A stretch of DNA of 63,921 bases, the filler included. It is 5 parts of 5 records of this genome, joined end to end, with 100 filler letters (N's around TTAATTAATTAA, not from the genome) between each part and the next. Parts side by side here need not be neighbours in the genome. Positions count along the whole stretch, not along the records: positions 34,935 to 51,379 come from DRR723986_4857; 4 more parts are not named here. The stretch is one strand, 5' to 3'. Positions 17,988 through 58,666 of this stretch are shown here, one piece after another; position 1 is the stretch's first letter; each line of letters opens with the position of its first letter. The notes below the pieces were generated by a model that saw only the letters and a program-made list of their open reading frames with translations, had not been told where the DNA came from and ran no database searches. The translations under genes and the position numbers were made by a program.

Positions 17988-18104
17988 GATTGGGTCGTGA
18001 GTTTGGGTGGGGTTTCGGATGAGCAGTTTGGAGGATGAGGCTGGGGGCTTGGCGGATGAAGATTTTGGGCGCAGCTTTGCGTGATCAAGGGGACCTCCCA
18101 CGCC

Positions 18105-34934: not shown

Positions 34935-34935
34935 A

Positions 34936-34962
34936 GTCACCATCGGCGGCTGCGGCGGCTAA
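34936..34962 (+). CDS. soxY: Sulfur carrier SoxY, last codons only
   Basis: GTC ACC ATC GGC GGC TGC GGC GGC TAA = VTIGGCGG-stop, directly upstream of soxZ. Confidence 0.93.
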   Translation, partial: VTIGGCGG

Positions 34963-35059
34963 TCCGCAACAGCGCAAGCGGCTTGTCCGCAGGACCGGCA
35001 CCGGCCTTTAGCCGAAACGCCGCCCGGCAAGCAGATCAGGGATACGAAGGAACCAAATC

Positions 35060-35386: not shown

Positions 35387-35528
35387 GCGGCAGCCCTGCA
35401 TCTGCGGCTGTGACGTCCGCACGGACTGAAAAGCCCGGGACGGGTGCATCGAGAGTGTCGGGACATCGTATCTGCAGTCGGTTGAAGGCAGGATGTTCCA
35501 GGGATCGCTCAAATCGGGAGGAGACGAT

Positions 35529-36389: not shown

Positions 36390-36405
36390 GCTGACCGTTT
36401 AACCT

Positions 36406-36439
36406 CCGGCGCGGTCGCAGCCACCGCGCCGGTTTCTTT
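36406..36439 (+). terminator. Terminator-like hairpin between soxA and soxB
   Basis: CCGGCGCGGT-CGCAGCC-ACCGCGCCGG-TTTCTTT. Confidence 0.7.
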
Positions 36440-36601
36440 CCTGTCGCCGGCGAATTCCCGCCCGGCCAGCAGGCGGAAACAAAGGGCTGAAAACATCAAT
36501 GTCCCGAACGTGGGATAACCGGGGTGCACGGCGTCGTCGTGCCTCAACGGGAAAACTGTGCAACCGGCCGGGCATCGGCCGTTGGTTTGGAGTAACTGAG
36601 G

Positions 36602-38296: not shown

Positions 38297-38329
38297 CGCC
38301 TTTTCTTCAGAGATCCTGAGGACACGATC

Positions 38330-39604: not shown

Positions 39605-40709
39605 AGCCCTCAGCCTTGGAACCATCATTGCCACCCTGCCCCTGCTCGCCGCAACGGCCCATGCGGGCGATGCCGAAAAGGGCGAAAAGGTCTTCAAGAA
39701 ATGCGCGGCCTGCCACGCGGTCGGGGAAGGTGCGAAGAACAAGGTCGGTCCGGAACTGAACGAGATTTTCGGCCGTACCGCAGGATCGCTTGAGGACTAC
39801 AAGTATTCCAAGGCAATGATCGAGGCCGGTGGTGGCGGGCTCGTCTGGGACGAGGCAACACTGACGACCTATCTGACCAAGCCCAAGGACATGGTCAAGG
39901 GCACCAAGATGGCCTTTGCCGGTCTGAAGAAGCAGGAAGACCTGGACAACGTGATTGCCTATCTGGCCACCTTCTCCAGTGCTGCTGCTCCCGCCGACCA
40001 GCAGGGCGCCGCAGAACCTGTGGCCACTGAAACGGAAACCGCCAGCGCCGACACGGCAGCGAAGGCTCCAGCCGTACCAGTGTCCGAAGTCCGTGAAGGT
40101 GGCATCTTCGGCCTTGGCCGTGTGGCGACGGAAGACGAGGTCGCCGCTTGGGACATCGACGTTCGCCCAGACGGCAGCGGCTTGCCGGAGGGCTCCGGTA
40201 CGGTGGCCGATGGCGAAGTGCTGTTCACGGACAACTGCGCCGTCTGTCACGGCGATTTTGGCGAAGGTGTCGGCCGCTGGCCGGTTCTGGCCGGTGGCCA
40301 GGACACCCTGACCGAGGAACGCCCGGAAAAGACCATCGGCTCCTACTGGCCGTATCTGTCCACGGTCTACGATTATGTCCGCCGCGCCATGCCCTACGGC
40401 AACGCCCGTTCCCTGTCGGATGACGACGTTTACGCGTTGACGGCCTATCTCCTTTACCTGAACGACATCGTCGAGGATGAGGACTTCGAATTGTCGAAAG
40501 ACAACTTCCTGGAGATCCGTCTTCCCAACGAGGAAAACTTCATCGCTGACGATCGCGCCGAAGAGCCGCATTATGCTGCCAAGGCCGAACCCTGCATGAG
40601 CGACTGCAAGGACAGCGCGGTCGAGATCACCATGCGCGCCCGTATTCTCGACGTGACCCCGGGATCCGTCGACGACGACGAGGCCTCCGGCATGGGAGGC
40701 GTCGACTGA
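39588..40709 (+). CDS. soxD: Diheme cytochrome SoxD (c2-like domain N-terminal, SoxD core C-terminal)
   Basis: CAACH and CAVCH; FGLGR....EVAAWDIDVRPDG, KTIGSYWPY, PCMSDC; 17-nt overlap with soxC. Confidence 0.9.
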   Translation: MSKFLKALSLGTIIATLPLLAATAHAGDAEKGEKVFKKCAACHAVGEGAKNKVGPELNEIFGRTAGSLEDYKYSKAMIEAGGGGLVWDEATLTTYLTKPKDMVKGTKMAFAGLKKQEDLDNVIAYLATFSSAAAPADQQGAAEPVATETETASADTAAKAPAVPVSEVREGGIFGLGRVATEDEVAAWDIDVRPDGSGLPEGSGTVADGEVLFTDNCAVCHGDFGEGVGRWPVLAGGQDTLTEERPEKTIGSYWPYLSTVYDYVRRAMPYGNARSLSDDDVYALTAYLLYLNDIVEDEDFELSKDNFLEIRLPNEENFIADDRAEEPHYAAKAEPCMSDCKDSAVEITMRARILDVTPGSVDDDEASGMGGVD

Positions 40710-40796
40710 CATCGTTTTGCGGCAGCGGCCCGTGAAAGAAAGGCCGCCCGCGCAAGGTCGCCGCAGGATATCCTGCGGCGTTAGGAGGAGGAAACG

Positions 40797-41240
40797 ATGG
40801 GAATGTTTTCAAGACTGGCAGTGGCCGCTTCGGCCCTGCTGATGTTTGGCTCTGCCGTATTGGCAGGCGACGGCATCCACAAGCTTGCCCTGCAGATCAG
40901 CGACAATGATCCGCAGAAGATGAACACAGTGTTGAACGTCGCGTCCAATGTGGCGCGCCACTACTCTGAAATCGGCGAGGAGGCCGATATCAAGATTGTT
41001 GCCTTCAATGCGGGCCTGCACATGTTCCGGGCGGATACGTCTCCCGTTTCGGACCGCATGAAATCCTTCGTGGAAAGCATGCCGAATGTCGCCTTCGAGG
41101 CCTGCGACAACACCCGCCAGGCCATGGCCAGGAAGGAAGGCAAGGACATCGAGTTTCTGGAAGGTGTCGAAGTCGTTCCCGCTGGTGCCGTCACTCTGAT
41201 GGAGCTGGACGAAGACGGCTACACCATCCTGCGGCCCTAG
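40797..41240 (+). CDS. Periplasmic DsrE-family protein
   Basis: Signal peptide; LALQISDNDP..MNTVLN; FEACDNT; VVPAGAVTLMEL..DGY.ILRP. Confidence 0.8.
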   Translation: MGMFSRLAVAASALLMFGSAVLAGDGIHKLALQISDNDPQKMNTVLNVASNVARHYSEIGEEADIKIVAFNAGLHMFRADTSPVSDRMKSFVESMPNVAFEACDNTRQAMARKEGKDIEFLEGVEVVPAGAVTLMELDEDGYTILRP

Positions 41241-41435
41241 ACAGTCACAAGACCCGCCGTGCGGACAGTTACAAGGTCCGTACGGCTTCGTCCCTTTCGG
41301 CATGTAGCCCGCCGGAACGCCCGGTTTTTGCATTTCCGCAATCAATTGTCAGCCGTTGCAGGTCTTTCTTTTGCACGAAGCATTCGCGTCCGGCATCGGA
41401 CGGACTTGCTTTCCCACACCCTTCTGCCTCAAATG

Positions 41436-41460
41436 GGAACCAGCAGCAGTTCTAGGCGTT
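41436..41460 (+). promoter_or_regulatory. EcfG-dependent promoter of the Crp/Fnr gene
   Basis: GGAAC-N16-CGTT. Confidence 0.8.
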
Positions 41461-41491
41461 TTGATGGATTGCCAATGGAGATGCCATTTGA

Positions 41492-42238
41492 ATGACCGAA
41501 ACAGTCCCGTTTCAAACCAATTGCCAAACCTGCCCCCTGAGACGGAAATCCGTTTTCCGCTCGCTGGAAGACAAGGAACTGGACTTCATTTCGGATTTCA
41601 AGACCGGTGAACTGACGGTCGAAGCCGGAGCAACCATTGTTCAGGAAGAGAACAAGAGCCCGCATCTTTACACCATTCTGGATGGCTGGGCCTTTCGGCA
41701 CAAGGCTCTGGCGGACGGCCGAAGGCAGGTATTGAACTTTGCCCTTCCGGGCGATCTTGTCGGCCTTCAGCTTGCCGTCCTGAACGAGATGCAGCACACG
41801 GTCACCGCCCTTACCGACACCACTTTGTGCGTCTTTCAGCGCGACAGGGTCTGGTCGATCTTCAAGGACTACCCGAGCCTGGCCTTTTCAATGACCTGGA
41901 TCGCAGCCCGTGAGGAACAGATCCTGGACGGGCACATCATCAGCCTCGGTCAACGTTCTGCCCTGGAACGGCTCGCCTATCTCATCCTGCATCTTTACGA
42001 CCGCGCAGAGACCATCGGCTATGCGAGCAATCAGGCGCTGGATGCACCGTTTTCCCAAAGTCACCTGTCAGATGCGCTTGGCATCACACCGGTTCACACC
42101 AGCCGTACGCTCCGCAAGCTTCAGGAAAAGGGGCTGATCAGCTGGGCCAAGGACCGCATCCGGATCCTGGACAGGGATGCTCTGGAAAAACTTGCCTCAT
42201 ACGAGAGCATGGCCGATGAGTGCCGCCCGCTCATCTGA
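41492..42238 (+). CDS. Crp/Fnr-family transcriptional regulator
   Basis: N-terminal CQTC; DGRRQVLNFALPGD; SLGQRSALERLAY; LSDALGITPVHTSRTL HTH. Confidence 0.92.
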   Translation: MTETVPFQTNCQTCPLRRKSVFRSLEDKELDFISDFKTGELTVEAGATIVQEENKSPHLYTILDGWAFRHKALADGRRQVLNFALPGDLVGLQLAVLNEMQHTVTALTDTTLCVFQRDRVWSIFKDYPSLAFSMTWIAAREEQILDGHIISLGQRSALERLAYLILHLYDRAETIGYASNQALDAPFSQSHLSDALGITPVHTSRTLRKLQEKGLISWAKDRIRILDRDALEKLASYESMADECRPLI

Positions 42239-42296
42239 GCGGCGGCCGACATCTTCACGTTTGCTTGAAAGGCATCTTCCAGCGAAAACGAGCGCG

Positions 42297-42701
42297 TCAG
42301 ATCAGGGCGCCGATCTGCGCTTTTGTGTAGGGCTTGCTCAGGACCACCTGCCCCTCGAACGCCGTGGGCAGCGGGTCGAGATCGCTGTAACCGCTGGCGA
42401 AGATGAACTTCGTCCCCTTTTCCAGCAGCTGGCTGGCGAAAGCCAGGCTGGTATCGTCGCCGATCTTCACATCCAGAATAGCAAAGCTGAACAGCTGAGC
42501 TGCCAGTGTTTCCGCCGCTTCCGCAAGATTTGCGAGCGTCTGTACCGGCGAGAACCCGAGCTCTTCCAGCATCATCTGCGTATCGAGCGCGATGATCGGG
42601 TTGTCTTCGACAACCAAGGCAGGGCCGCGCGGCACTGGCGCGGTGATGTGGGTTTCCGTTGTCACGAGGGTTCTCATCGTCAGACTGTTGACCATCTGCA
42701 C
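42297..42701 (-). CDS. Single-domain response regulator, SdrG/MrrA-like (start uncertain)
   Basis: LVVEDNPIIA, AILDV, FIFASGY (FATGY-type motif), LSKPY. Confidence 0.85.
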   Translation of the reverse strand: MQMVNSLTMRTLVTTETHITAPVPRGPALVVEDNPIIALDTQMMLEELGFSPVQTLANLAEAAETLAAQLFSFAILDVKIGDDTSLAFASQLLEKGTKFIFASGYSDLDPLPTAFEGQVVLSKPYTKAQIGALI

Positions 42702-42844
42702 GATGACACGAAATCAAATGCCCCGCATTAACATAAGTTATCGGGTCGATTGATTTTCCACTTTGATGTCAGCCTCTTCTGTTGTCGCAAACAAACGTGA
42801 AACCTTTTCTTAACTCGGGAGTTTACTAGGCGGAGGTAGACACC

Positions 42845-43150
42845 ATGTTCACGCATCGCAAACGAATTCCGACCAACGCCCCTACGGCAATCGCCATTGC
42901 CGCCCTTCTGGCTTCCAGCCTGATTGTGGCAGAACCCCTTTTCACCAATGAAGCGGGTGCGGAAACCGCTCACAACAGCAACACGCCCGCGCCGGTAGAA
43001 GTCGAACAGAAGGCCGCTCCCAAAGGCGACCTGAAGGTTGAGCTTGCCGACGTGCATGGCCGCCCGATGCGCTGTGTTTCCGGCACGCGCGTAACCACCT
43101 GTACCGGCTGGCCGATCTCCCACGGCATGCTGGCATTCAATTCCGAGTAA
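42845..43150 (+). CDS. Small exported hypothetical protein
   Basis: GGAGGT RBS; hydrophobic N-terminus; PKGDL motif; two Cys; terminator follows; GAAAC-N16-AGTT upstream. Confidence 0.65.
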   Translation: MFTHRKRIPTNAPTAIAIAALLASSLIVAEPLFTNEAGAETAHNSNTPAPVEVEQKAAPKGDLKVELADVHGRPMRCVSGTRVTTCTGWPISHGMLAFNSE

Positions 43151-43174
43151 AGAGTTCATGACGCACAATCGTTG

Positions 43175-43206
43175 AAAAGCCGCCTTTCCCAGGCGGCTTT
43201 TATTTT
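43175..43206. terminator. Bidirectional intrinsic terminator
   Basis: AAAAGCCGCCT-TTCCC-AGGCGGCTTTT-ATTTT. Confidence 0.8.
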
Positions 43207-43470
43207 GCCTTGATCCATGACGAGCGACACTACGCCGCTGGAATGGCCCCAACCGGCAAGCATTCTGGCAACTGACAAATTGTCCGTTTGGCCTGATAAG
43301 AACCTAGAACCGGCGCCACCCTCACCCACGACATAGGCCAATTGCGTCCTGGAATGTCACCTCCACCCGCTCCTGAAAGAGGAACACGGCCACAACCTTA
43401 ATCCCGCGGGTATCAGGGCGCCGGCATGGGTAGCATTTGTCATCTTCGGGGTTCGCAAGGCGTGCGATTG

Positions 43471-44619
43471 TCAGTGAGATGCGCCGGGCTCGGGCTCGGG
43501 CTCGGGCTCAGGTTCGGAACGCCCCGGCTCTTCGGACTGAGCTGTGTTGTTGATGATCTCCAACACACTGACCACAACCAGCAGCAACGGCACGGCTATG
43601 AATCCGCCGATCGGTCCCCACAGCCAGATCCAGAAGGCAATTGCCAGGAAAACCGCAAAGGGGTTCAGCGTCATCGTCCGGCCGAGAACGGTTGGTGTGA
43701 CGAACTGCGCTTCGATCAGGTTGAGAACCAGATAGGCCAGCGGCGGCGTCAGGATCTCCACAGGCGTGTACCCCGTCGCAAGTCCGATACCGCTCATCAC
43801 CAGGACCATGATCGCCGGCCCCAGATAGACGACGTAGTTCAAGACGCCGGCCAGCATTCCCCACAACAGCGGCGAGGGAACATCGAGCAGCCACATGGTC
43901 AGCGCCACGGCCACGCCGAGCCCCGCGTTGATGACGCTGATGGAGATGAGATAGGTGGAAAGGCGCGCTTCGATCGTCCGAAACGCGGTCACGATGCAGC
44001 GCCTGCCTTCACTGTCGGGAGACAACTGGAGCGCAGCCCTGCGCAGATGCGGGCGTGTCAGCAGAAAGAAATAGAGACTTGCCAGGAACAGGACCACCTG
44101 GGCCATGAAGGCCGGTGCGAAATAGAAAACGCTTTCTACCGCGGAATTGTCGTCGACACTCACCTGCATGCCGCCCTTCTGGCCCATGGCACTGCGAAGG
44201 TCTTCCTGCAGGCTCGCGACAGACGAAAAGAACCCCTGCCAACTGACCAGCTGCGCCTGCAGCCGTGACCAGATGAGCGGAAGCCTGTCGAGCCAGTCCG
44301 ACAGCGGTACGACGAAAGCCGCCCCGGCGGTCAGGATCAGCGCGATAAAGACGAGCACCATCCCCCCTGCAGAGAGCCAACTCGGCACGCCCAGGCGAGA
44401 CAATCTTTCCATGGGAAGTCCGAAGATCGTGCCGACAACCACCGACAGGAAAACCGGTGCGAAAAACACTTGGGCAAGATCAAGGGAAGCAATCACCACG
44501 ATGCCACACAGGATGGCCGCCGAGTAGCGGACAACCGGGTCCGATCTGACAACCTCGCCCACTGTTACGGGGGGAACAAGTCCTGTTACTGCGGGTCGGT
44601 CTGGCTGCGCTGTCATCAC
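43471..44619 (-). CDS. AI-2E family transporter
   Basis: Multi-TM; LNYVVYLGP, IEAQFVTPTVLGRTMTLNP..VFLAIAFWIWLWGPIGGFIAVP; EP tail from a GGGCTC x4 repeat. Confidence 0.9.
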   Translation of the reverse strand: MMTAQPDRPAVTGLVPPVTVGEVVRSDPVVRYSAAILCGIVVIASLDLAQVFFAPVFLSVVVGTIFGLPMERLSRLGVPSWLSAGGMVLVFIALILTAGAAFVVPLSDWLDRLPLIWSRLQAQLVSWQGFFSSVASLQEDLRSAMGQKGGMQVSVDDNSAVESVFYFAPAFMAQVVLFLASLYFFLLTRPHLRRAALQLSPDSEGRRCIVTAFRTIEARLSTYLISISVINAGLGVAVALTMWLLDVPSPLLWGMLAGVLNYVVYLGPAIMVLVMSGIGLATGYTPVEILTPPLAYLVLNLIEAQFVTPTVLGRTMTLNPFAVFLAIAFWIWLWGPIGGFIAVPLLLVVVSVLEIINNTAQSEEPGRSEPEPEPEPEPGASH

Positions 44620-44658
44620 TGTTTGCTCCGGTGGCCGGCAAGAAGGCGCGGCAATGGG

Positions 44659-45087
44659 TTAGCCGCGCTCTTCGTCACCTCGTGCCTGCGCTGCCAGAAA
44701 GGCCAGACCGCCCAATGCGGCGGTGATCATCAGGCCTTTTGATTTTGTGAGCTGTGGCAGAACGGAAATGGCAGCGGCCAGGCCCAGTCGCTGCGCGGCC
44801 TGACTATGCGCCTTGCGTCTTCGGTCCTTGTGCTTCAGGAAACTGAGCACCGCCACGAATACCAGTCCCGTTACGGCCATGAAGACGGCAATCAGCAAAG
44901 CCGCCATCGCAGGGCCGAACACCGGCGCCAGAAAGGCGCCGGCTGCCACCACGCCGGCCACATAGGCTGTCGCGAAACAGACTGCCGCAATGCCGCCCAA
45001 CACGGCATTGCGCTTGGCACGGTGAACCATGCCATTGAAGTCTCGCGAAACAGCCCCGAAGGCCAGCGGTAGGGCGCGCAGGAGCAT
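44659..45087 (-). CDS. Small membrane protein (holin-like/YqjE-like)
   Basis: Two TM helices; translationally coupled to the DUF883 gene. Confidence 0.7.
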   Translation of the reverse strand: MLLRALPLAFGAVSRDFNGMVHRAKRNAVLGGIAAVCFATAYVAGVVAAGAFLAPVFGPAMAALLIAVFMAVTGLVFVAVLSFLKHKDRRRKAHSQAAQRLGLAAAISVLPQLTKSKGLMITAALGGLAFLAAQARGDEERG

Positions 45088-45431
45088 CAGCGGCGCACCA
45101 GCGCTGCAATCAGGAAGCCGACACCGGCGGCAATGCCGATCGACTGCAGCGGACGACGGCGCACTTCAGCAACGAAGGCGCGTTCGTAATTCTGCAGCTC
45201 AGCAGACAGATCGCTCAAGGCGTCCTGGGACAATTTGGTCAGATCCTGCCCTGCTTCGGCGGCCTTGGTCTTGTATTCATCCGTCTTGCCGGCGCCGTAC
45301 TTCTTCAAGGAGCCGGCGAGAGAGGCAATATCGCCGCGAATGCGTTCGATGTTTTCCTCGATCTCACGAGCGCTAACGGTGTCATTGGCAGGATTGGCGG
45401 TCGATGCCGTGGCAGTCTTCGCAGTTGCCAT
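45087..45431 (-). CDS. DUF883 / ElaB-YqjD family tail-anchored protein
   Basis: C-terminal VRRRPLQSIGIAAGVGFLIAALVRR. Confidence 0.88.
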   Translation of the reverse strand: MATAKTATASTANPANDTVSAREIEENIERIRGDIASLAGSLKKYGAGKTDEYKTKAAEAGQDLTKLSQDALSDLSAELQNYERAFVAEVRRRPLQSIGIAAGVGFLIAALVRR

Positions 45432-45559
45432 CTTGTCGCTCCTGTTTTCAATCGCGTGAAGCCCTGATGACGGGCGACACGCATCGCGTGAATGGGATCA
45501 AGCCCGGAATTCGGACACTTGGACACCGCGCTGAACCAAATTGCGCGGTCTGGCTTGTA

Positions 45560-45584
45560 AACGGCCTTGCGCTCATTTGGTTCC
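45560..45584 (-). promoter_or_regulatory. EcfG-dependent promoter of the DUF883 operon
   Basis: Minus strand GGAAC-N16-CGTT. Confidence 0.8.
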
Positions 45585-45631
45585 AGACAACACAGCATGA
45601 ATTGTTGCAGCGGCGTCTTCACGGCTGTCCG

Positions 45632-45892
45632 TCAGCCGCGCAAAGCCTCGATCAGATCGGATTTGTTCATTGAAGACCTGCCGCTGATGTCGAGCTCCTG
45701 TGCCCTTTCATAAAGCGCATCCCTGGTCCAGGCTTCATAAGGTGCGGCCTTGCCACCCTTGCGCGACGGCGCTTGGTGGTCGTTTGCCTGCGCATTGGCA
45801 ATTCTCGCCGACTTTTCCTTGCTGTAGCCCTTGTCGCGCAGGGCGTCGTAGGTGTCTTCCTTCTTGATGCTGGAGCTGTTTTTGGAAGCCAT
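45632..45892 (-). CDS. Small basic stress protein with Rho-N-like C-terminal motif
   Basis: YDALRDKGYSKEKSARIANA; YEAWTRDALYERAQELDISGRSSMNKSDLIEALR. Confidence 0.85.
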   Translation of the reverse strand: MASKNSSSIKKEDTYDALRDKGYSKEKSARIANAQANDHQAPSRKGGKAAPYEAWTRDALYERAQELDISGRSSMNKSDLIEALRG

Positions 45893-45948
45893 GCCCGTGT
45901 CCTTTCATTTGCTGTTCCGCTGTTTTCAAAAAACAACCTCAAATGAAA

Positions 45949-45974
45949 AACGCCGTCTCGCGCGGGATCGTTCC
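45949..45974 (-). promoter_or_regulatory. EcfG-dependent promoter
   Basis: Minus strand GGAAC-N17-CGTT. Confidence 0.75.
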
Positions 45975-46251
45975 AATATCTTTTCGATGAAAGGACTGGA
46001 TAGAGAACTTTATAATGACGTGATAAAAATGAACTATGCCGCCCGGAAGCTCAGACTTATGAAAAATACAAATGCTATTCTTGAAATAATTTCAGATCAC
46101 ATTTTCCATACTGTCAAAAATCGAAATATTTTCAAAAACATGGAACTGAGGACGAGCTGAAGACTTTTCCTATCGAACGTCCGGGCCACGCTCTTGTCAG
46201 CAGCACACCCGGACACATCGATCGCCAATCGAAAGCACGAAAGGAAGAACT

Positions 46252-46767
46252 ATGTCGACGTCTCAGGTTCTGAACATCGAAACCCCGAAGGTCGACCCGA
46301 TCAAGACGGGTGTTTCTGCCGAGGTGCGCGAACAACTGGCGAAGCATCTCTCGGTCATTCTGGCCGAAACCTACATGCTCACGGTGAAATCGCACCTTTA
46401 TCACTGGAACGTTGTTGGACCGCTGTTCAAGTCGATCCATGACCTCACCGAAGAGCACTATGAAAATCTCTTTGCCGCGACAGACGACCTTGCCGAGCGC
46501 ATTCGTGCCCTTGGACACCGGGCGCCGGTGAATGTCGACGAAGGCAAATTGAACCTGACCGTCAGCCTGCCGGCCGGCGGTATGCCCAATGCCTTCGAAA
46601 TGATCGAGGATCTGGTTCGCAGTCATGAAATGATCGCTGCCGAAATGCGCGACATGGCAGCCTACGCCGGTGACAATAGCGACCCGGTGACGGAGGATCT
46701 TCTGACCCAGCGCATCACGTTCCACGACAAGGCAGCCTGGATGCTGAGGGCCGTCATTACCGAATGA
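46252..46767 (+). CDS. dps: DNA protection during starvation protein
   Basis: HLYHWNVVGPLFKSIHDLTEEHY...DDLAERIRALG...HDKAAWMLRA. Confidence 0.95.
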   Translation: MSTSQVLNIETPKVDPIKTGVSAEVREQLAKHLSVILAETYMLTVKSHLYHWNVVGPLFKSIHDLTEEHYENLFAATDDLAERIRALGHRAPVNVDEGKLNLTVSLPAGGMPNAFEMIEDLVRSHEMIAAEMRDMAAYAGDNSDPVTEDLLTQRITFHDKAAWMLRAVITE

Positions 46768-46879
46768 CCGTTCCTCACCGGCATCCCGGATAACTTGCAA
46801 GACGACAAAGGTCCGTCTGCCGCGAGACGGCAGGCGGCCTTTGGCGTATGCACCAACTCAGTTTCAACCGTGTGATACC

Positions 46880-47113
46880 ATGATCAGCGTATCGAAACGA
46901 TTTGCCGGGTTCCGGACGCCTGCAAGCGTCCTGGAAGACCGGCACCTGTCGAATGAGCAAAAGCGGACAGCCTTGCTGGCCTGGCGGGCCAGCCTGCGCA
47001 AGGCACCTCGGGCAATTTCTCGGGACGGCCGGTCTCCTGCCGAACTGATCGAAGAAATCGACGAGGCCCTGAAGGCGCTTCGCCGCGAAAAGACTTCGCT
47101 CGGCAAAGGGTGA
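46880..47113 (+). CDS. Small hypothetical protein
   Basis: FRTPASVLEDRHLSNEQKRTALLAW...EIDEALKAL, resembling small proteins seen in stress islands. Confidence 0.55.
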   Translation: MISVSKRFAGFRTPASVLEDRHLSNEQKRTALLAWRASLRKAPRAISRDGRSPAELIEEIDEALKALRREKTSLGKG

Positions 47114-47181
47114 TAAAGCTTCGTCGTCGCAGGACATAAAGCACCTCTCCCGGCCCTGCCTGCAGTAAACGGCATGGGCGC

Positions 47182-48984
47182 CTAAGAAGTTGTCTTCCTG
47201 ACAGGAAACTCGATGACGCAACTCACGCCTTCGGGAGCGAAGTCGATGTTGACGTCGCCGTCGAGCGCCGGCCCCACCAAACGTTCCAGCAGCATTCGCC
47301 CGAAACCGTTGCGCCTTGGCGGCACAACTTCCGGACCGCCACGTTCCTTCCAGACCAGCCTGATCCTTCCGTCTACGGTCGTCCACGACACCGACAGTTT
47401 CCCCCCGAGCACTGACAAGGCGCCATATTTGGCGGCATTGGTCGTCAGCTCATGCAGTGCAAGACCAAGGTTCTGGGCCGCATCCGCCGTAATCGAATGC
47501 GGATCGCCCTCAATCTCGATCTGGGGGCTCCCCGGGTCGATCGATTGCGCCAGATGCGCCAGCACGAGTTCTTTCAGGTCAGCGCCGTACCAGGACTGCG
47601 ACACCAGAAGATCATGACTGGCCGCCATCGCCTGGAGCCGTGCGGCAAAACTTTCGACAAAATCCTCGGTGTTGTCCGAACGCGCCGCTGTCTGGCGTGC
47701 CATGGCCTGAATGACTGCAAGCAGGTTCTTGGAGCGATGCGTCAGTTCCCGCATGACGAGATGCATCTGGCGTTCGTTTTCCCGCTTGTGGGTCAGGTCG
47801 ATGGAGATGCCGATCAGGCCGGTGGTCCGACCTTCCTTGTCGCGCGAAGGCTCCATGCGCATGTTGTAGCTGCGATTGACCCCGTTCATGTCCATGTCGA
47901 ATTCGATGACGGCGCTTTCGCCTGTCTCGAGGACCTTCTTCTTAACCGGAATGAGTTTCAGCTGATCTTCTTCCGGAAACAGCTCATCATCGCTTTTGCC
48001 GATGAAGAAATCCGGTTTGAAACCGGGCGACGGATTGACGACATGAATATATTTCAGGTCCAGGTCCTGTTCGAACACGGTTGTAAGCGAACCGTCGAGC
48101 GCCTTTTCAAAACGCCGGTTCGCCTCCGCGAGCTGACTTGCCAGCGAGGCGAGCCGGATCTCATAGAGGTTCTTCTCGGTCATATCGATGGCCGTGCACA
48201 GCACACCGTCAATTTCGCCACTGCTGTCGCGTGTAGGATGCACGATCAGGTCCAGCGAAATCGTTCCCGTCTCCTCACTGTCGAGCGCGAAGAAGGTAGA
48301 TGCCGTCTCGCCGGTTTCCAGCACCTGGCGCTTGACCGGCTCCAGTTCCGCCGCGGTCTCTTCCGGCAGCAGATCCTGATCGGTACACCCGATGACGTCA
48401 TCGGCTTCCTTGCCGAACCGCGGATTGTGGATCCACGTGTAGCGCAGATCCTTGTCCTGGGTGAAAACGGAGATGTTGGATCCGGTCAACGCGGTCTCGA
48501 ACCGCTCGTTGATCCGCCTTATCTCCCGCCGCGATCTGCCGACCTTGTCGGAAAGCTGGAGATTTTCAGCCTTCAGCATATCGTTGGCCCGCTCCAGATC
48601 CTTGAGCGATGGAATGGCCAGCAGCATCGGCCGCACCCGCCAGACAACCACTGCTGTTGCCACCGAGACAAGGGCTGTTACCAGCTTGATCAGACCTTGT
48701 GCGCCGTAGATCGGCCACCAGAGCGTTACCAGGGCTGTCAGATGGGTCAGCGCACACGCCAGAATGAAGGCGATGAACAGGTAACCGATCTTGCGGGAAT
48801 TGCCTTGAATGTCCGGACGCTTGCGCAGAAACCCGAAGATCATAAGGGGAATGGCAATATAGGCCAGCGCAATCAGGGCATCGGAGATCGCATGAATCGC
48901 CACGAGATCCGGACGCCAGAGCAGGCAGTATCCATGCGGCATGAAGGAGGCCGCACCAAACAGATAGGACACGATTTCAGACAT
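47182..48984 (-). CDS. HWE histidine kinase with N-terminal ETR1-like ethylene-binding domain and two PAS domains
   Basis: MPHGYCLLW, ISDALIALAYIAIP, FILACALTH, IKLVTALVSVATA; two QD.DL.Y PAS repeats; ELTHRSKN, LHELTTNAAKYG, WKERGGP. Confidence 0.92.
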   Translation of the reverse strand: MSEIVSYLFGAASFMPHGYCLLWRPDLVAIHAISDALIALAYIAIPLMIFGFLRKRPDIQGNSRKIGYLFIAFILACALTHLTALVTLWWPIYGAQGLIKLVTALVSVATAVVVWRVRPMLLAIPSLKDLERANDMLKAENLQLSDKVGRSRREIRRINERFETALTGSNISVFTQDKDLRYTWIHNPRFGKEADDVIGCTDQDLLPEETAAELEPVKRQVLETGETASTFFALDSEETGTISLDLIVHPTRDSSGEIDGVLCTAIDMTEKNLYEIRLASLASQLAEANRRFEKALDGSLTTVFEQDLDLKYIHVVNPSPGFKPDFFIGKSDDELFPEEDQLKLIPVKKKVLETGESAVIEFDMDMNGVNRSYNMRMEPSRDKEGRTTGLIGISIDLTHKRENERQMHLVMRELTHRSKNLLAVIQAMARQTAARSDNTEDFVESFAARLQAMAASHDLLVSQSWYGADLKELVLAHLAQSIDPGSPQIEIEGDPHSITADAAQNLGLALHELTTNAAKYGALSVLGGKLSVSWTTVDGRIRLVWKERGGPEVVPPRRNGFGRMLLERLVGPALDGDVNIDFAPEGVSCVIEFPVRKTTS

Positions 48985-49103
48985 TTCGAATTTGCTCCGT
49001 CATCCGGGCATGTAAACTTTCGCGGCCGTCCCGCATCGGAAAAGCCGCTCCCGCGCCGATGCGCCAGCAAACAGTCGAAGCTGGCAGCAACCGCAATTCA
49101 TTC

Positions 49104-49128
49104 GGAACCTTTGACCTCAGGAACCGTT
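49104..49128 (+). promoter_or_regulatory. EcfG-dependent promoter of csbD
   Basis: GGAAC-N16-CGTT. Confidence 0.85.
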
Positions 49129-49163
49129 TTCCAGATGTCAGAAAGACAAGGAGAAAACGACCG

Positions 49164-49361
49164 ATGAATTGGGACCGGATTGAAGGAAACTGGAAAGAAT
49201 TCAAAGGCAAGGCCATCACCCAATGGGGCAGGCTGACCGACGATGATGTGGATCGTGTTGCCGGCAAACGGACCGAATTCGCAGGTCTGATCCAGCAGAA
49301 ATACGGCAAGACCCGTGAAGAAGCCGAGCGGGAAATCGATACCTGGATCTCGCGGCACTGA
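49164..49361 (+). CDS. csbD: CsbD-family stress protein
   Basis: MNWDRIEGNWKEFKGK...WGRLTDDD...IQQKYG.TREEAEREI; AAGGAG RBS. Confidence 0.93.
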   Translation: MNWDRIEGNWKEFKGKAITQWGRLTDDDVDRVAGKRTEFAGLIQQKYGKTREEAEREIDTWISRH

Positions 49362-49516
49362 TGGAAGAAGGCGGGCAGTGCCCGCCTCTTCCTCCCGCCT
49401 TGGGATCTGTCGTTATCGCGCACCGAAGGGCAGATGCCGAAACCGGCATCTTGCTTCGCTCTCGTGGAACGAATGCAGTGGAACACGCCCCCCGTGCTCA
49501 TCGCGCAGCGCTGCCC

Positions 49517-50323
49517 TCAGGCAGCGGCCACCTCTTCCGCCCCTTTGAAGAACAGCGCCTGGCTGATCCCCGCCTTCACCGTATTCGGATTGAACGGCTT
49601 GGTGATAAGGAACGTCGGCTCCGGCCGTTCGCCTGTCAGAAGACGCTCGGGGAACGACGTGATGAAGATGACCGGAACGGACATTTCGGCAAGGATATCC
49701 TTGACCGCATCAATGCCGGACGATCCGTCTGCAAGCTGAATATCAGCAAGCACAAGACCCGGGGTCTGCGCCTTTGCAGCTGCGATGGCATCGCTCGCTG
49801 TCCGGGCAACGCAGGTAACGCCGTGACCGAGCGACTCCACGATCTGGATCAGATCCATGGAAATAAGCGGTTCGTCCTCGATGATCAGCACATCCGTCTT
49901 GGTCTGCCTGTCAATTTCCGCGATCGCATCCTGGACGAGCTGGGTCACTTCATTTTCGCTACGCTCGATGATGAGGGCGGTTTCGGGAAGCGAAAACCCT
50001 TCCAGTGTGGACAGCAACAGGGTCTGCCGGCTTTCGGCCGCCATGGTTGCCAGCCGCTGCTGAGCGGTCTGCTCGAAGATGGAAACCGTCCCGTCATTCG
50101 CGATGGGCGGAACGACGCTCGCGTTCCAAAGGACATGGAAAAGCCGGTACAGACCGATTTTCACGCCATGAGATGTATCGATAATGGTCTGATCTGCCAC
50201 CAGCGCCTGCAGGCAGGCCCTGACATAGGCATCGCCACTTTTCTGACTTCCCGCCAGTGCTCTTGCATATCTACGCAGATACGGCAGGAGCGGCGCGATT
50301 TCTTCCGAAAGGCTCACGGACAT
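49517..50323 (-). CDS. phyR: Anti-anti-sigma response regulator PhyR
   Basis: LPYLRRYARALAGSQKSGDAYV sigma-like domain + receiver (IIEDEPLI, ADIQLADGSSG, LLTGERPEPTFLITKPF). Confidence 0.96.
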   Translation of the reverse strand: MSVSLSEEIAPLLPYLRRYARALAGSQKSGDAYVRACLQALVADQTIIDTSHGVKIGLYRLFHVLWNASVVPPIANDGTVSIFEQTAQQRLATMAAESRQTLLLSTLEGFSLPETALIIERSENEVTQLVQDAIAEIDRQTKTDVLIIEDEPLISMDLIQIVESLGHGVTCVARTASDAIAAAKAQTPGLVLADIQLADGSSGIDAVKDILAEMSVPVIFITSFPERLLTGERPEPTFLITKPFNPNTVKAGISQALFFKGAEEVAAA

Positions 50324-50394
50324 AAATTAGTTCCTCAATAGTTGCCGTCTGAAAGCGGTCGACGGGCCCGCGTCAAGCGCACCCATAAGCTGGA

Positions 50395-50452
50395 AATGCA
50401 TTCGGCAAAAAAAAGTTCCATACTCGAGGAACTTTTTTTTTGCCGCCGCGTT
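50395..50452. promoter_or_regulatory. Back-to-back EcfG promoters for phyR and nepR-ecfG
   Basis: Plus GGAAC-N16-CGTT (50428-50452); minus GGAAC-N16-CATT (50419-50395). Confidence 0.85.
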
Positions 50453-50502
50453 TACGTCGCAAATCAGCCTATCGTCGAAGACGCAAATATCGGGAATCTG
50501 CC

Positions 50503-50709
50503 ATGGCAAGCAAGCTTAACCCAAGTCGGCCCAACGCCGGATTTGGTGTAATAACACCGGCCGCCGGAGCCAAGTCCAAAGAAGACTGGATCGGCAACCA
50601 GCTCAAGAAGGTTTACGACGAGGCCCTATCGGAAGACATACCGGATGACATGATGGACCTGCTGTCCGCCTTGGACGACAGAGGCTCTGACGAGGAGGCC
50701 GCCGAATGA
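50503..50709 (+). CDS. nepR: Anti-sigma factor NepR
   Basis: IGNQLKKVYDEALSEDIPDDMMDLLSALD; ATGA overlap with ecfG. Confidence 0.92.
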   Translation: MASKLNPSRPNAGFGVITPAAGAKSKEDWIGNQLKKVYDEALSEDIPDDMMDLLSALDDRGSDEEAAE

Positions 50710-51260
50710 ACGTCGCAAAGTTCAAGAAGGATCTGGTCGACGCCATACCGCGATTGCGCGCCTTTGCCAGATCGATCAGTGGTGACCGCGACCGTGCGGA
50801 CGATCTGGTCCAGGAAACCTTGGCAAAGGCGATCGCCAATAAAGACAAGTTCACCGAAGGTACCAACCTCACCGCCTGGCTGATTACCATTCTCCGTAAC
50901 CAGTATTACTCCGTTGGCCGGAAGATGCAGCGCGAGGTCGCCGACCCTGACGGTGAACACGCCGCCAGCCTGGAAAGCAAACCGCAACAGGCAGGTCATC
51001 TGGAACTGAAGGATTTCCTGAGCGCCCTTCAGGTTCTTCCGGACGACCAGCGTGAAGCCCTTATCCTGATCGGTGCCAGCGGCTTTTCCTATGAAGAAGC
51101 AGCCGACATCCTCGGCGTGAAGGTCGGCACGGTCAAAAGCCGCGTCTCCCGTGCACGCCTTCGTCTGGATGACCTCATGAACGGGACCGAGAAATTTGAA
51201 CGGTCCGAAATCGCCGCCGCCGAATCCGCCTCCCTGATCAGGGACGCTCTGTCCGTCTGA
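50706..51260 (+). CDS. ecfG: General stress response sigma factor EcfG (ECF15)
   Basis: IPRLRAFARS, ADDLVQETL, GTNLTAWLITILRN, ASGFSYEEAA, GTVKSRVSRAR; phyR-nepR synteny. Confidence 0.95.
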   Translation: MNVAKFKKDLVDAIPRLRAFARSISGDRDRADDLVQETLAKAIANKDKFTEGTNLTAWLITILRNQYYSVGRKMQREVADPDGEHAASLESKPQQAGHLELKDFLSALQVLPDDQREALILIGASGFSYEEAADILGVKVGTVKSRVSRARLRLDDLMNGTEKFERSEIAAAESASLIRDALSV

Positions 51261-51277
51261 TCATTCTCATCTACACC

Positions 51278-51303
51278 GGAACCTTTCCGCTTCTGCGTCC
51301 GTT
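51278..51303 (+). promoter_or_regulatory. EcfG-dependent promoter for a gene beyond the contig end
   Basis: GGAAC-N17-CGTT. Confidence 0.7.
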
Positions 51304-51379
51304 ACAGGCCGGCGCACTGCATCCGGTGTGATCAGGCAAGCCGGTTGGCGCACGACAGCTAACAATGACCGGCAGGGGG

Positions 51380-51479
51380 NNNNNNNNNNNNNNNNNNNNN
51401 NNNNNNNNNNNNNNNNNNNNNNNTTAATTAATTAANNNNNNNNNNNNNNNNNNNNNNNNNNNNNNNNNNNNNNNNNNNN
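51380..51479. other. Artificial contig linker
   Basis: 44 N + TTAATTAATTAA + 44 N. Confidence 0.99.
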
Positions 51480-52196
51480 CATCCACTGCATGCGCACGTA
51501 ATCCTTGGCATGGCCCCAGTCCCGCAGCGCGTCGATGTTGCCCATATAAAGACACTCTTCGAGGCCCTGACCGATGTTGGCCAGACCGCGGGTAATCTTG
51601 CGGGTCACAAATGTCTCACCACGGCGCGGGCTCTCGTGATTGAATAAGATGCCGTTGCAGGCATACATACCATAAGCCTCGCGGTAGTTCACCGTGATCC
51701 AATAGGCGTACATCTTGGCCACCGCATAGGGGCTGCGCGGATGAAACGGGGTCTTTTCCGTCTGTGGCGTTTCCTGCACCAAACCATACAATTCCGACGT
51801 CGAGGCCTGATAAAACCGGGTTTTCTTTTCCAACCCTAGAAAGCGGATCGCTTCGAGCAATCTGAGCGTGCCCATGGCATCTACATCCGCCGTATATTCG
51901 GGCGCTTCAAAGCTGACGGCCACGTGGGATTGCGCGCCAAGGTTGTAAACCTCGTCAGGTTGCACCTCTTGCAAAATGCGCGTCAGGTTCGACGTATCTG
52001 TCAAATCGCCATAATGCAGTTTGAATTTGGCATGGTCGGTATGGGGATCTTCGTAGATGTGATCGACCCGTTGCGTGTTGAACAGGGAGGAGCGGCGTTT
52101 GATGCCATGCACCTCATAGCCCTTTTCCAGCAAAAACTCTGCCAGATATGATCCGTCTTGTCCGGTGACCCCAGTGATAAGTGCGGTTTTTGCCAT
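51480..52196 (-). CDS. gmd: GDP-mannose 4,6-dehydratase, 5' part (cut by contig end)
   Basis: [58 protein letters not shown]. Confidence 0.98.
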
Positions 52197-52310
52197 GTGA
52201 TCCAACCCGTTCTATGCGCGTGCTTCGTCTTTGAGACCCTGCTCAGACTCCGGTCATACCGGTTGCCTCAACCCTGAGGCAACCGGCAATACGGAATCGT
52301 TGATGCAGAC

Positions 52311-58565: not shown

Positions 58566-58566
58566 G

Positions 58567-58666
58567 NNNNNNNNNNNNNNNNNNNNNNNNNNNNNNNNNN
58601 NNNNNNNNNNTTAATTAATTAANNNNNNNNNNNNNNNNNNNNNNNNNNNNNNNNNNNNNNNNNNNN
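58567..58666. other. Artificial contig linker
   Basis: 44 N + TTAATTAATTAA + 44 N. Confidence 0.99.

Follow-up and report, generated by a model that had tools for sequence, protein, structure and literature searches.

Bacterial ethylene receptors and HWE-family stress kinases are each known separately. AzoEtr1 of Azospirillum brasilense, a membrane kinase of an alphaproteobacterium, has at its N-terminus an ethylene-binding domain of three helices, after which come one PAS domain and a histidine kinase (525 aa in all); it is preceded by a putative RpoN site, lies immediately upstream of a 135-aa response regulator of its own, the stop and start codons overlapping, and influences biofilm, colonisation of roots, and carbon/nitrogen metabolism (PMC11819568). 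The excerpted text of the same paper reports ethylene binding by AzoEtr1 residues 1-130, as well as by Azospirillum proteins having an ethylene-binding domain with the same seven binding residues, and describes the D35A and C75A variants used in complementation as predicted non-binding (PMC11819568). The words PhyR, EcfG, and HWE are absent from the AzoEtr1 paper (PMC11819568).

SynEtr1 (Slr1212) of Synechocystis and AtETR1 likewise possess an ETR1_N-family domain, a Cu-dependent ethylene site whose Cys and His lie on helix 2, and a two-component-type output. Their downstream domains are different, and both lack an HWE core as well as any partner-switch sigma system; SynEtr1 is described as sensing light in addition to ethylene and has a response regulator of its own plus a small RNA, while AtETR1 signals through CTR1 and contains GAF, HisKA, and receiver domains.

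The HWE/HisKA_2 kinases that serve the alphaproteobacterial general stress response (GSR), i.e., the Sphingomonas Pak kinases and PhyT as well as Caulobacter PhyK and LovK, are genomically tied to phyR-nepR-ecfG with a single-domain receiver nearby; in Caulobacter, phyK adjoins phyR. Their input domains, which include LOV and periplasmic types, differ from that described here, and none with an ethylene-binding domain was found in the searched literature. In model species, a single-domain receiver and a phosphotransferase lead to PhyR, according to the cited portions of two papers (PMC5898713, PMC5964349).

Herein, we describe a kinase from marine Roseibium (Labrenzia) aggregatum (named as in the sources) that shares its domain order and its seven binding residues with AzoEtr1, and its kinase family and gene neighbourhood with the GSR kinases. 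A preliminary description of this DNA knew of no account of such a link, and our full-text literature searches agree, returning no description of an ethylene receptor combined with an HWE kinase or the GSR. In the reading we favour, at roughly even odds (about 0.5), the kinase would sense ethylene in a Cu(I)-dependent manner and feed PhyR-NepR-EcfG, either directly or via a single-domain receiver.

Results

Kinase architecture and the membrane input domain

Positions (Table 1) are counted along the whole window, i.e., the 63,921 nt of five joined parts that were analysed, in which 34,935-51,379 correspond to DRR723986_4857. The assigned kinase start codon appears right because the N-terminus is kept across orthologues. 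Pfam matches and translated motifs bear out the preliminary outline of an ETR domain, two PAS domains, and an HWE kinase, with PF25487 scoring 107.2 bits (cut-off 27) and PAS_4 matching in two stretches, of which residues 170-271 are the best. The HRSKN (416), HELTTN (511), WKE (545), and GFG (560) catalytic and ATP-binding motifs are all intact, such that the protein would be kinase-competent. Residues 367-594 align to NF052306 at a score below that model's cut-off. The name "blue-light-activated histidine kinase", given to orthologues in some sources, is unsupported, since the LOV blue-light kinase model (150.6 bits, cut-off 450) and the NCBIfam PhyK model (24.7 bits, cut-off 750) both score below their cut-offs.

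Table 1. Features of the kinase locus, in window positions.
Feature	Position	Strand	Details
Sensor kinase gene	47182..48984	(-)	ORF; 600 aa, running from the ethylene-binding domain through a linker and two PAS domains to the HWE kinase core
ETR1_N ethylene-binding domain	48613..48906	(-)	residues 27-124; PF25487, E 5.3e-31
N-terminal motif H17-G18-x-C20-x-x-W23	48916..48936	(-)	outside Pfam model
PAS domain 1	48172..48477	(-)	residues 170-271; PAS_4 E 1.5e-25
PAS domain 2	47791..48024	(-)	residues about 321-398; PAS_9 at 321-398 and second PAS_4 stretch
HWE_HK phospho-acceptor domain	47503..47748	(-)	residues 413-494, H416 within HRSKN; PF07536 E 6.1e-25
ATP-binding part of kinase core	47203..47496	(-)	residues 497-594; HATPase_c_2
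csbD, small stress protein	49164..49361	(+)	PF05532 E 1.3e-17; divergent from kinase gene
phyR, anti-anti-sigma response regulator	49517..50323	(-)	NF006623 358.7 bits, cut-off 240
nepR, anti-sigma factor	50503..50709	(+)	PF18557 E 8.5e-12; 68 aa from ATG
ecfG, ECF sigma factor	50706..51260	(+)	Sigma70_r2, Sigma70_r4_2, PhyR_sigma2; NF009199 220.8 bits, cut-off 219
Conserved small ORF, 77 aa	46880..47113	(+)	convergent with kinase gene; tblastn
Single-domain receiver, candidate SdrG/MrrA-like relay	42297..42701	(-)	Response_reg only
DUF883 stress gene	45087-45431	(-)	Pfam; conserved in 19/23 linked loci
DUF7218 stress gene	45632-45892	(-)	Pfam; conserved in 13/23 linked loci
Dps (Dps/ferritin-like) stress gene	46252-46767	(+)	Pfam; conserved in 21/23 linked loci
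EcfG-type promoter, csbD	49104..49128	(+)	exact GGAAC-N16-CGTT; end 36 nt before csbD start codon
EcfG-type promoter, nepR-ecfG	50428..50452	(+)	exact match
EcfG-type promoter, DUF883	45560-45584	(-)	exact match
EcfG-type promoter, DUF7218	45949-45974	(-)	exact match
Promoter-like site, phyR	50395..50419	(-)	GGAAC-N16-CATT, one mismatch; such matches as a class no commoner than chance

An HMM comparison, as had been proposed, returned the ETR1_N family. The three transmembrane helices and the eight residues D35, Y42, I45, P46, I74, C77, H81, and K100 named in the preliminary description are likewise recovered: the kinase has only three hydrophobic segments (centres near residues 35-46, 74-83, and 104-115), and an AlphaFold2 model of residues 1-135 contains long helices at 25-55, 62-89, and 93-122 (mean pLDDT 87.4), with low confidence at the N-terminal motif (pLDDT under 50 at residues 16-18). 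Among 151 related domains, each of the seven binding residues, as well as K100, is found in 147 to 151, a match far beyond chance, with all seven jointly present in 140; an alignment of 37 sequences shows no variation at D35, Y42, P46, I74, C77, H81, or K100. Equivalence to AtETR1 D25/C65/H69/K91 derives from the Pfam match and from the numbering in the AzoEtr1 paper, the excerpted text of which lists D35/C75/H79/K98 as counterparts (PMC11819568). D35 has the identical number, and the interval from D35 to C77 is two residues longer than in that numbering. Judging from its sequence, we take the input module to be a genuine copper-type ethylene-binding domain that would bind Cu and ethylene.

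The kinase could also feed the GSR while its membrane Cu(I)/Cys/His site senses a signal other than ethylene, candidates being copper status, CO (which weakly mimics ethylene at plant receptors), a larger alkene, or oxidants that act on Cu(I) or on C20/C77. The H17-G18-x-C20-x-x-W23 motif is kept in 148-149 of the 151 related bacterial domains and is missing from the same orthologues that lack C77 or H81, which suggests a metal or redox site larger than C77 and H81 together; a Dps/ferritin-like gene is also present in the island. Moreover, the GSR usually answers to stress and not to hormones (cited portions of PMC5898713, PMC5964349), and ethylene in seawater is described as very low (an excerpt of PMC4036023). 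Against this, the equivalents of the non-ligand ethylene-binding residues of AtETR1 (Y42, I45, P46, and I74) are as conserved as the ligands, and bacterial domains having these residues bind ethylene (excerpted text of PMC11819568). Furthermore, a cyanobacterial response is reported at only 1-8 nL/L ethylene, with an estimated Kd of 127 nL/L for the isolated SynEtr1 domain (available part of PMC6682694). We thus consider a non-ethylene signal possible, though unlikely.

Gene neighbourhood, promoters, and the route to PhyR

In a family sample of 101 genomes with 32 places bearing an ethylene-binding domain, the kinase is encoded 0.5-2.2 kb from phyR at 23 (the linked loci); in one genome of another family, it lies in a rearranged order between two ecfG-type genes, adjoining nepR and phyR. 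The survey of ETR-HWE fusions near phyR suggested at the outset thus yields 23 loci plus this one. Within the window, Pfam and NCBIfam matches confirm the neighbours initially listed (csbD, phyR, nepR, ecfG, and a receiver). PhyR contains PhyR_sigma2, PhyR_sigma-like, and Response_reg domains, the nepR stop codon overlaps the ecfG start, and csbD is located between phyR and the kinase gene in 22/23 linked loci. The small ORF has a tblastn match in all 23 linked loci and none in L088, in L035/L036, or in loci without the ethylene-binding domain; it matches no Pfam family. No response-regulator gene other than phyR lies next to the kinase gene.

Exact EcfG-type promoter matches number nine in the window vs 2.2 expected (0/100 shuffles reaching nine), with five falling between 45.5 and 51.3 kb; the region upstream of the kinase gene has none by exact pattern search. 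An RNA contig of run X3 starts at 50471, near the nepR-ecfG promoter, and a contig of this run stops at 50384, near the phyR promoter-like site. Short marine metatranscriptome contigs (99% or more identical) span the kinase gene, csbD, phyR, and nepR-ecfG, providing a hint of expression as opposed to proof of transcription or of its level.

The receiver has the PhyR receiver region as its top NCBIfam match, and a single-domain receiver is present within 8 kb in 15/23 linked loci. This would suit a kinase serving as a PhyK/PhyT-like gate instead of a primary kinase, passing phosphate from the receiver to PhyR, or removing it, under modulation by the membrane domain. Such a role is described for Caulobacter PhyK (the proposed PhyR kinase), a phosphotransferase fed by MrrA, and for Sphingomonas PhyT with SdrG, in the cited portions of PMC5898713 and PMC5964349. 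Two further HWE proteins in the genome could then be the true kinases; the nearest genome examined has only three HWE_HK genes overall, a small number that also speaks for a link between this kinase and the GSR. However, the fully intact HWE motifs and the low PhyK-model score argue against a gate, which we deem somewhat less probable still than a non-ethylene signal.

Distribution and co-inheritance with PhyR

Within the genus, the ethylene-binding domain occurs in 18/21 PhyR-positive vs 0/20 PhyR-negative genomes, and among 18 genomes of a second genus the sole PhyR-bearing genome is the sole one with an ethylene-binding-domain kinase; across three genera, kinase presence/absence follows PhyR, with these counts coming from related, and thus not independent, genomes. 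PhyRs from linked loci in two genera group together in a single clade (SH-aLRT 100), apart from PhyRs that belong to these genera but come without the kinase; i.e., the lineage of a linked PhyR goes with the kinase and not with the genus.

At 9/10 sister loci without an ethylene-binding-domain kinase, other HWE kinases are encoded a few kb from phyR. Five have CHASE-HWE kinases, which occupy the same place beyond csbD and are also membrane HWE proteins (about 555 aa), but have an extracytoplasmic CHASE sensor and cores that separate from those of the ethylene-binding-domain kinases in the tree. The nearest genome examined has both kinds; there, phyR is separated by about 1.6 Mb from glnB and glnA, next to which both the CHASE-HWE kinase and a soluble HWE protein are encoded. 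Ethylene-binding domains in bacteria comprise 8022 clusters at 50% identity, and 24 of the 80 nearest such proteins are HWE/HisKA_2 fusions; as domain and fusion are both common, only the GSR context is unusual.

Adjacency to phyR could instead reflect inherited gene order without coupling, with the kinase signalling to another, unlinked regulator, much as AzoEtr1 appears to signal to its own adjacent response regulator (PMC11819568). Class-wide, most ethylene-binding-domain kinases do not lie near phyR; outside the family, only 1/7 of the HWE/HisKA_2 type is beside it (401-genome class sample). Most linked loci are supplied by one clade, and the synteny is therefore partly one event. In addition, two genomes without PhyR retain a kinase copy whose PAS and kinase parts have diverged but whose binding residues are intact, and the kinase can therefore have another partner. 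Nonetheless, the branch bearing these copies is long (1.59), as a change of partner would lead one to expect, and uncoupled adjacency would not readily account for the lack of another adjoining response-regulator gene, the co-occurrence with PhyR in three genera, or the same partners in a different order in a second family. This explanation is hence rated slightly below the gate.

Orthologues with a degenerate copper site

In 6/23 linked orthologues, the Cu ligands C77 and/or H81 are lost along with other binding residues, while the PAS domains, kinase core, and synteny are retained; the locus can therefore work without a Cu site. The remaining 17/23, as well as the window protein, keep every binding residue. 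Relative to the L039 orthologue, identity is 77% in the ethylene-binding domain vs 65% in the PAS region, and in most orthologues domain conservation equals that of the PAS region; in those without ligands, it falls to 33-38%, with PAS near 55%. This pattern points to selection on the binding site wherever it is retained, making it very improbable that the membrane domain is a mere anchor and dimerisation module with the real signal entering via the PAS domains, as the six degenerate copies alone might suggest. Taken together, the preliminary reading is partly upheld: the domains and the phyR adjacency are confirmed, the co-occurrence with PhyR adds support, and the common fusions, the Cu-ligand losses, and the PhyR-less copies qualify it.

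Discussion

In our favoured reading, that of a Cu(I)-dependent ethylene sensor feeding the GSR, the protein would be an HWE-family sensor histidine kinase of the inner membrane, encoded in a compact co-inherited cassette (ecfG-nepR, phyR, csbD, kinase, small ORF). Its three transmembrane helices would hold Cu(I) through C77 and H81, with D35 and K100 acting as a coupling pair. Ethylene, or a close chemical relative, would bind Cu(I) in the membrane domain and shift helix packing, with this change passing through the linker and both PAS domains to the kinase core (H416) so as to alter phosphate flow to PhyR. Given the route through a receiver and a phosphotransferase in model species, phosphate could reach PhyR in either of two ways, directly or with the receiver and another HWE protein as relay, as in Sphingomonas and Caulobacter. 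Phospho-PhyR would then capture NepR, and the freed EcfG would use GGAAC-N16/17-CGTT promoters to transcribe its own operon along with csbD, DUF883, and DUF7218. Our inferences concern the binding of Cu and ethylene, the partner in phosphotransfer, and the direction of the response; for the last, it is a weak guess, by analogy with plant receptors, that ligand binding might lower kinase output.

Sunlit seawater gives rise to ethylene, and algae produce it as well (PMC6682694, PMC4036023), rendering its sensing by a seawater bacterium ecologically plausible. Ultimately, as the kinase is co-inherited with the master switch of the GSR, this bacterium's stress response may count ethylene, or a gas like it, among its signals.

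Domain architecture and predicted binding site of the kinase

The sensor kinase, for which the preliminary description had proposed an ethylene-binding domain (EBD), two PAS domains, and an HWE core, has this architecture by Pfam, and the profile comparison with ETR1 suggested there as a check returned an ETR1_N match above its cut-off (see table). Beyond the HWE_HK profile match, the translation contains an H-box histidine (HRSKN, 416), an N-box with the conserved glutamate (HELTTN, 511), a W-x-E motif (WKE, 545), and a G-box (GFG, 560), as these motifs are defined in the HWE literature. Three hydrophobic segments, and no more, are found in the protein, and an AlphaFold2 model of residues 1-135 (37-sequence alignment; mean pLDDT 87.4) places long helices at 25-55, 62-89, and 93-122; together these give the three N-terminal transmembrane helices of an ETR1_N domain, likewise as first described.

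Features of the kinase, its cassette, and compared loci (window positions unless a locus or genome is named)
Feature	Location	Strand	Details
Sensor kinase	47182-48984	-	ORF, 600 residues
ETR1_N, PF25487	kinase residues 27-124		profile positions 2-97 of 97; E 5.3e-31; 107.2 bits, cut-off 27
PAS domains, two	kinase residues 170-271 and about 321-398		Pfam
HWE_HK, PF07536	kinase residues 413-494		E 6.1e-25; 88.2 bits, cut-off 22.8
H-G-x-C-x-x-W motif	48916-48936 (kinase residues 17-23)	-	AlphaFold2 model unsure here
csbD	49164-49361	+	adjoins kinase gene
phyR	49517-50323	-	NF006623, 358.7 bits, cut-off 240
nepR	50503-50709	+	PF18557, 44.9 bits, cut-off 25.7
ecfG	50706-51260	+	NF009199, 220.8 bits, cut-off 219
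Exact EcfG-type motif	41436-41460	+	precedes ORF 41492-42238, CRP/FNR-like by reading its translation
Exact EcfG-type motif	51278-51303	+	just after ecfG; no ORF of at least 60 aa follows on that strand
Single-domain receiver	42297-42701	-	best NCBIfam match, PhyR receiver region
Small ORF, 77 aa	46880-47113	+	no Pfam family; convergent with kinase gene
Split ORF	51432-52205		looks like GDP-mannose dehydratase by its translation
CHASE-HWE kinases	L096:4381-6036, L097:9226-10911, L099:9163-10857, L100:4680-6347, L102:10840-12516, L103:3168-4859; L104:5904-7526		examined loci of the family
Kinase copy without PhyR	L035:7875-9749		genome G058
Split phyR	G040:C42:105957-106730		several reading frames

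The residues and kinase motifs named in the preliminary description are all in the translation. When the window's domain was aligned with its 150 nearest representatives, D35 was kept in 148 of the 151 domains, Y42 in 150, I45 in 148, P46 in 147, I74 in 149, C77 and H81 in 151 each, and K100 in 149; the seven binding residues, i.e., all but K100, are identical in 140/151. Ahead of helix 1, and outside the Pfam ETR1_N model, lies a further motif, H17-G18-x-C20-x-x-W23, which is present in 148-149 of these domains. As in the preliminary description, Y42, I45, P46, and I74 are taken to be the counterparts of Y32, I35, P36, and I62 of Arabidopsis ETR1 (AtETR1). The full set would thereby correspond to the seven positions on which ethylene binding by AtETR1 depends (D25, Y32, I35, P36, I62, C65, and H69) and to K91, an equivalence reached indirectly, through the Pfam match and the numbering of the Azospirillum brasilense receptor AzoEtr1. 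In the AzoEtr1 study, AtETR1 D25/C65/H69/K91 align with AzoEtr1 D35/C75/H79/K98, ethylene is bound by AzoEtr1 residues 1-130, and the predicted non-binders D35A and C75A are used in complementation tests (PMC11819568). Compared with AzoEtr1, D35 has the same number in the window's kinase, whereas the spacing from D35 to C77 is two residues longer. No solved structure in the PDB matched the EBD by sequence or by profile; xanthorhodopsin, raised by the profile search, is a chance match (E 0.4). A 525-aa EBD-PAS-HWE protein with the numbering D35/C75/H79/K98 (P0152) was considered as AzoEtr1 and set aside, its sources bearing no Azospirillum name; a genome scan (4 unrelated loci), a protein search, and a plasmid search gave no Azospirillum for it.

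Proteins 98-100% identical to the kinase carry the source names Roseibium aggregatum or Labrenzia species, while relatives at 47-79% identity come from Roseibium, Stappia, and Pseudovibrio, nearly all among the matches listed having both PF25487 and PF07536. Some orthologues are named "blue-light-activated histidine kinase" at source, which is unsupported, since the match to the LOV blue-light kinase model (NF052306) reaches just 150.6 of the required 450 bits and covers residues 367-594 alone, i.e., the end of the second PAS domain and the kinase core. The kinase is not PhyK either (NCBIfam equivalog NF051872, 24.7 bits vs. 750, with the alignment limited to the core). Searched by itself among 1.84 billion representatives, the EBD matches 8022 clusters (50% identity) at E ≤ 0.001 and 5303 at E ≤ 1e-10. 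The 80 nearest clusters all contain PF25487, combined with HWE_HK or HisKA_2 in 24, with GGDEF/EAL in 7, and with HisKA/HATPase_c in most others. Bacterial EBDs and their fusions to HWE-type kinases are thus common, and the unusual feature of the window's protein is its phyR context alone, not the EBD or the EBD-HWE fusion.

Gene neighbourhood, promoters, and transcripts

The phyR, nepR, and ecfG genes first reported beside the kinase each score above the cut-off of their respective models, with the start of ecfG overlapping the stop of nepR. The components of the partner switch are all present: a PhyR with sigma-like domain and receiver, NepR, an EcfG-type sigma factor, and GGAAC-N16/17-CGTT promoters. 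The window contains nine exact GGAAC-N15-18-CGTT sites (2.2 expected; a count of nine was reached in 0 of 100 shuffles). Five fall at 45.5-51.3 kb: one closely follows ecfG, and the others precede csbD, nepR-ecfG, DUF883, and DUF7218. With one mismatch allowed, the pattern has 18 matches vs. 17 expected in the window, and exact matches alone were therefore used; by that measure, no EcfG-type promoter was found in the window upstream of the kinase gene. As for RNA, three runs (X1, X6, and X10) consist of single contigs of 5-76 kb that span everything and are uninformative on transcription, so the short contigs of a marine metatranscriptome (X3) were used instead. At ≥99% identity these cover the kinase gene, csbD, phyR, and nepR-ecfG, and two contig ends (50384 and 50471) adjoin the predicted phyR and nepR promoters, a weak hint of transcription.

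The 77-aa ORF convergent with the kinase gene is in all 23 loci of the family in which such a kinase lies beside phyR (hereafter, linked loci); no copy was found in the L088 or L035/L036 loci treated below, or in loci without an EBD kinase. The window also contains eight 44-N runs (352 bases) in four pairs (18104-18204, 34834-34934, 51379-51479, and 58566-58666), one of which splits ORF 51432-52205. This ORF has no match in the 23 linked loci, that of the near-identical genome G001 included, from which we take the DNA right of ecfG to be strain-specific; G+C is lower there (0.52-0.54).

Linkage to phyR and co-inheritance within the Stappiaceae

Of the genomes compared, G001 is nearest, with 44% of the words sampled from the window and a cassette at 98-99% identity. 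Across the 101 family genomes, PF25487 is found in 31, and the survey for EBD-HWE fusions near phyR that had been proposed at the outset covered 32 EBD places with 8 kb on each side. At 23 of these, the distance between phyR and an EBD-PAS-PAS-HWE kinase gene is 0.5-2.2 kb, with ecfG further along; NepR was detected in 22/23, and 22/23 have csbD in the interval from phyR to the kinase gene. PhyR exceeds its curated cut-off in 53 genomes, such that 23 genomes have the linked kinase, 30 have PhyR without it, and 48 lack an intact PhyR, counts that are not independent events since the genomes are related. Any EBD occurs in just 3 of those 48: G058 and G067, with a divergent EBD-PAS-HWE kinase each, and G040, in which phyR and the EBD gene are both broken. 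Within the window's genus, an EBD is found in 18/21 PhyR-positive and 0/20 PhyR-negative genomes; in another genus, the sole PhyR genome of 18 is also the sole kinase genome, and the two genes are adjacent.

PhyR is missing from 20/41 genomes of the window's genus and 17/18 of another, nearly all at least 94% complete. The system has been described as near-universal in free-living Alphaproteobacteria, and its detection in just over half of the family is thus unexpected. The kinase copies of G058 and G067 (L035 and L036) have intact binding residues and a fast-evolving core; their neighbours are an extensin-like gene and an ABC transporter, and neither copy adjoins a response regulator gene. 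G040 has its EBD gene (L057, G040:C2) and its phyR each broken across several frames; these could be true pseudogenes or assembly errors.

In the PhyR tree, a long-stemmed clade (SH-aLRT 100) unites the window's PhyR with 22 linked PhyRs from two genera and excludes the PhyRs that these genera have without the kinase; the PhyR of L055, from the third genus, falls elsewhere, on a long branch. In the kinase-core tree (quick IQ-TREE search, SH-aLRT support), the linked kinases make up a single clade (99) within a wider set of EBD-HWE kinases, and the two copies from PhyR-less genomes fall inside this clade on a branch of 1.59. By these two trees, the cassette appears to be acquired or lost in its entirety, as a single unit.

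Other kinases at this position and EBD proteins outside the family

HWE kinases lie within a few kb of phyR in 9/10 PhyR-positive loci without an EBD kinase. The typical sister locus has a soluble PAS-HWE protein of about 340 aa directly after phyR, and five have a CHASE-HWE kinase of about 555 aa beyond csbD, the place held by the EBD kinase in the window; where a CHASE-HWE kinase is near phyR, it is thus situated in 5/6 cases. These kinases fall apart from the linked EBD kinases in the kinase-core tree, and the NCBIfam PhyK model does not match them. Plant cytokinin receptors likewise sense through a CHASE fold; two sensor domains of plant-hormone-receptor type are thus found at one position in one bacterial family. 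G001 has a soluble HWE and CHASE-HWE pair elsewhere, adjoining glnB and glnA. With three HWE_HK genes in all (and one further HisKA_2 match) in that genome, the EBD kinase is one of very few candidate PhyR inputs in the organism.

In a class sample of 401 genomes, EBDs were found in 30 genomes at 33 places, of which 31 were examined and 30 proteins typed: 2 HWE, 5 HisKA_2, 19 HisKA or HATPase_c, 1 GGDEF, and 3 stand-alone domains. A single one of these EBD proteins lies beside phyR (L088, in genome G289 of another family), in a gene order that differs from the window's (ecfG-like gene, PRC-barrel gene, kinase, ecfG, nepR, phyR); this rearranged locus is found in 1/33 genomes of that family, G289 itself.

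Orthologues lacking the predicted copper ligands

The seven binding residues, K100, and the HGxC motif are all retained in 17/23 linked orthologues. The remaining six are changed as follows: (i) L056 has H17R, Y42C, and C77Y; (ii) L052 and L054 have H17L, G18D, C20Y, C77G, and H81Q; (iii) L058 and L059 have lost HGxC and have Y42L, I45L, P46S, I74M, and C77N; and (iv) L055 has lost HGxC and has Y42F, I74T, H81K, and K100S. The PAS domains, kinase core, and synteny are kept in all six; in L058/L059, identity is 33-38% in the membrane domain, near 55% in the PAS region, and near 70% in the core. From this pattern, selection acts on the predicted binding site wherever it is retained, the window's protein included, and the place of the kinase in the cassette is independent of that predicted site. 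The H-G-x-C-x-x-W motif is lost in exactly those orthologues without C77 or H81, and this joint loss of H17/C20 with the two ligands suggests a single metal site to which the N-terminal motif also contributes.

Discussion

On the best-supported reading of these sequences, the kinase would detect ethylene, or a ligand related to it, in a Cu(I)-dependent manner and would thereby control phosphate flow to PhyR. Synteny, co-occurrence, and joint phylogeny make it a candidate PhyR-pathway kinase. Phosphate might pass through the single-domain receiver, which is present in 15/23 linked loci, with one of the other HWE proteins acting as the transferase onward to PhyR. Such a relay would be analogous to the routes of Sphingomonas (Pak to SdrG to PhyT to PhyR) and Caulobacter (kinases to MrrA to PhyK to PhyR), as given in two reports (PMC5898713, PMC5964349). 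Direct transfer from the kinase to PhyR may equally be the route.

Ethylene is a plausible ligand in this marine habitat. According to two papers, it is formed in seawater photochemically from dissolved organic matter and is also an algal product (PMC6682694, PMC4036023); the former reports a cyanobacterial response at 1-8 nL/L (PMC6682694). We tentatively propose, at a probability of roughly one in three (0.35), that the general stress response of marine Stappiaceae has a dissolved gas as a dedicated chemical input, either ethylene from algae or from the action of sunlight on organic matter, or some other small ligand of Cu(I). The receptor would be a plant-type copper site on a kinase that moves, together with a PhyR, NepR, and EcfG of its own, as one mobile cassette. 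As part of the same proposal, the bacterial site would be larger than that of plants, with the N-terminal His-Gly-x-Cys taking part in copper binding or loading, and in lineages where all four ligands have been lost, the kinase would amount to a naturally occurring "blind" allele of this switch.

The sensor domain and the kinase class are both known; what appears new is their combination in a conserved, co-inherited stress-response cassette. Among the matches listed, full-text searches (in which subscription journals are thinly covered) returned no paper naming both an ethylene receptor and PhyR and none naming an ethylene receptor in connection with Labrenzia, Roseibium, or Stappia, and those for a bacterial ethylene receptor with an HWE histidine kinase gave matches on phytochromes alone. 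Titles and abstract openings of the EcfG papers listed likewise name no ethylene sensor. These searches agree with the initial statement that no description of the link was known.

The signals of the many HWE/HisKA_2 kinases in alphaproteobacterial general stress responses are largely undefined; the main input defined for such kinases is light, via LOV domains. If the proposal is true, the field would gain such a kinase with a well-understood, chemically addressable sensor, and thus a clean on/off handle, since ethylene, 1-MCP, copper, and Cys/His point mutants are at hand as tools; the six orthologues without copper ligands are ready-made natural controls. Bacterial ethylene perception would then extend beyond a cyanobacterium and a root coloniser to marine heterotrophs, free-living and algae-associated, and would acquire a new output, i.e., a sigma-factor partner switch.
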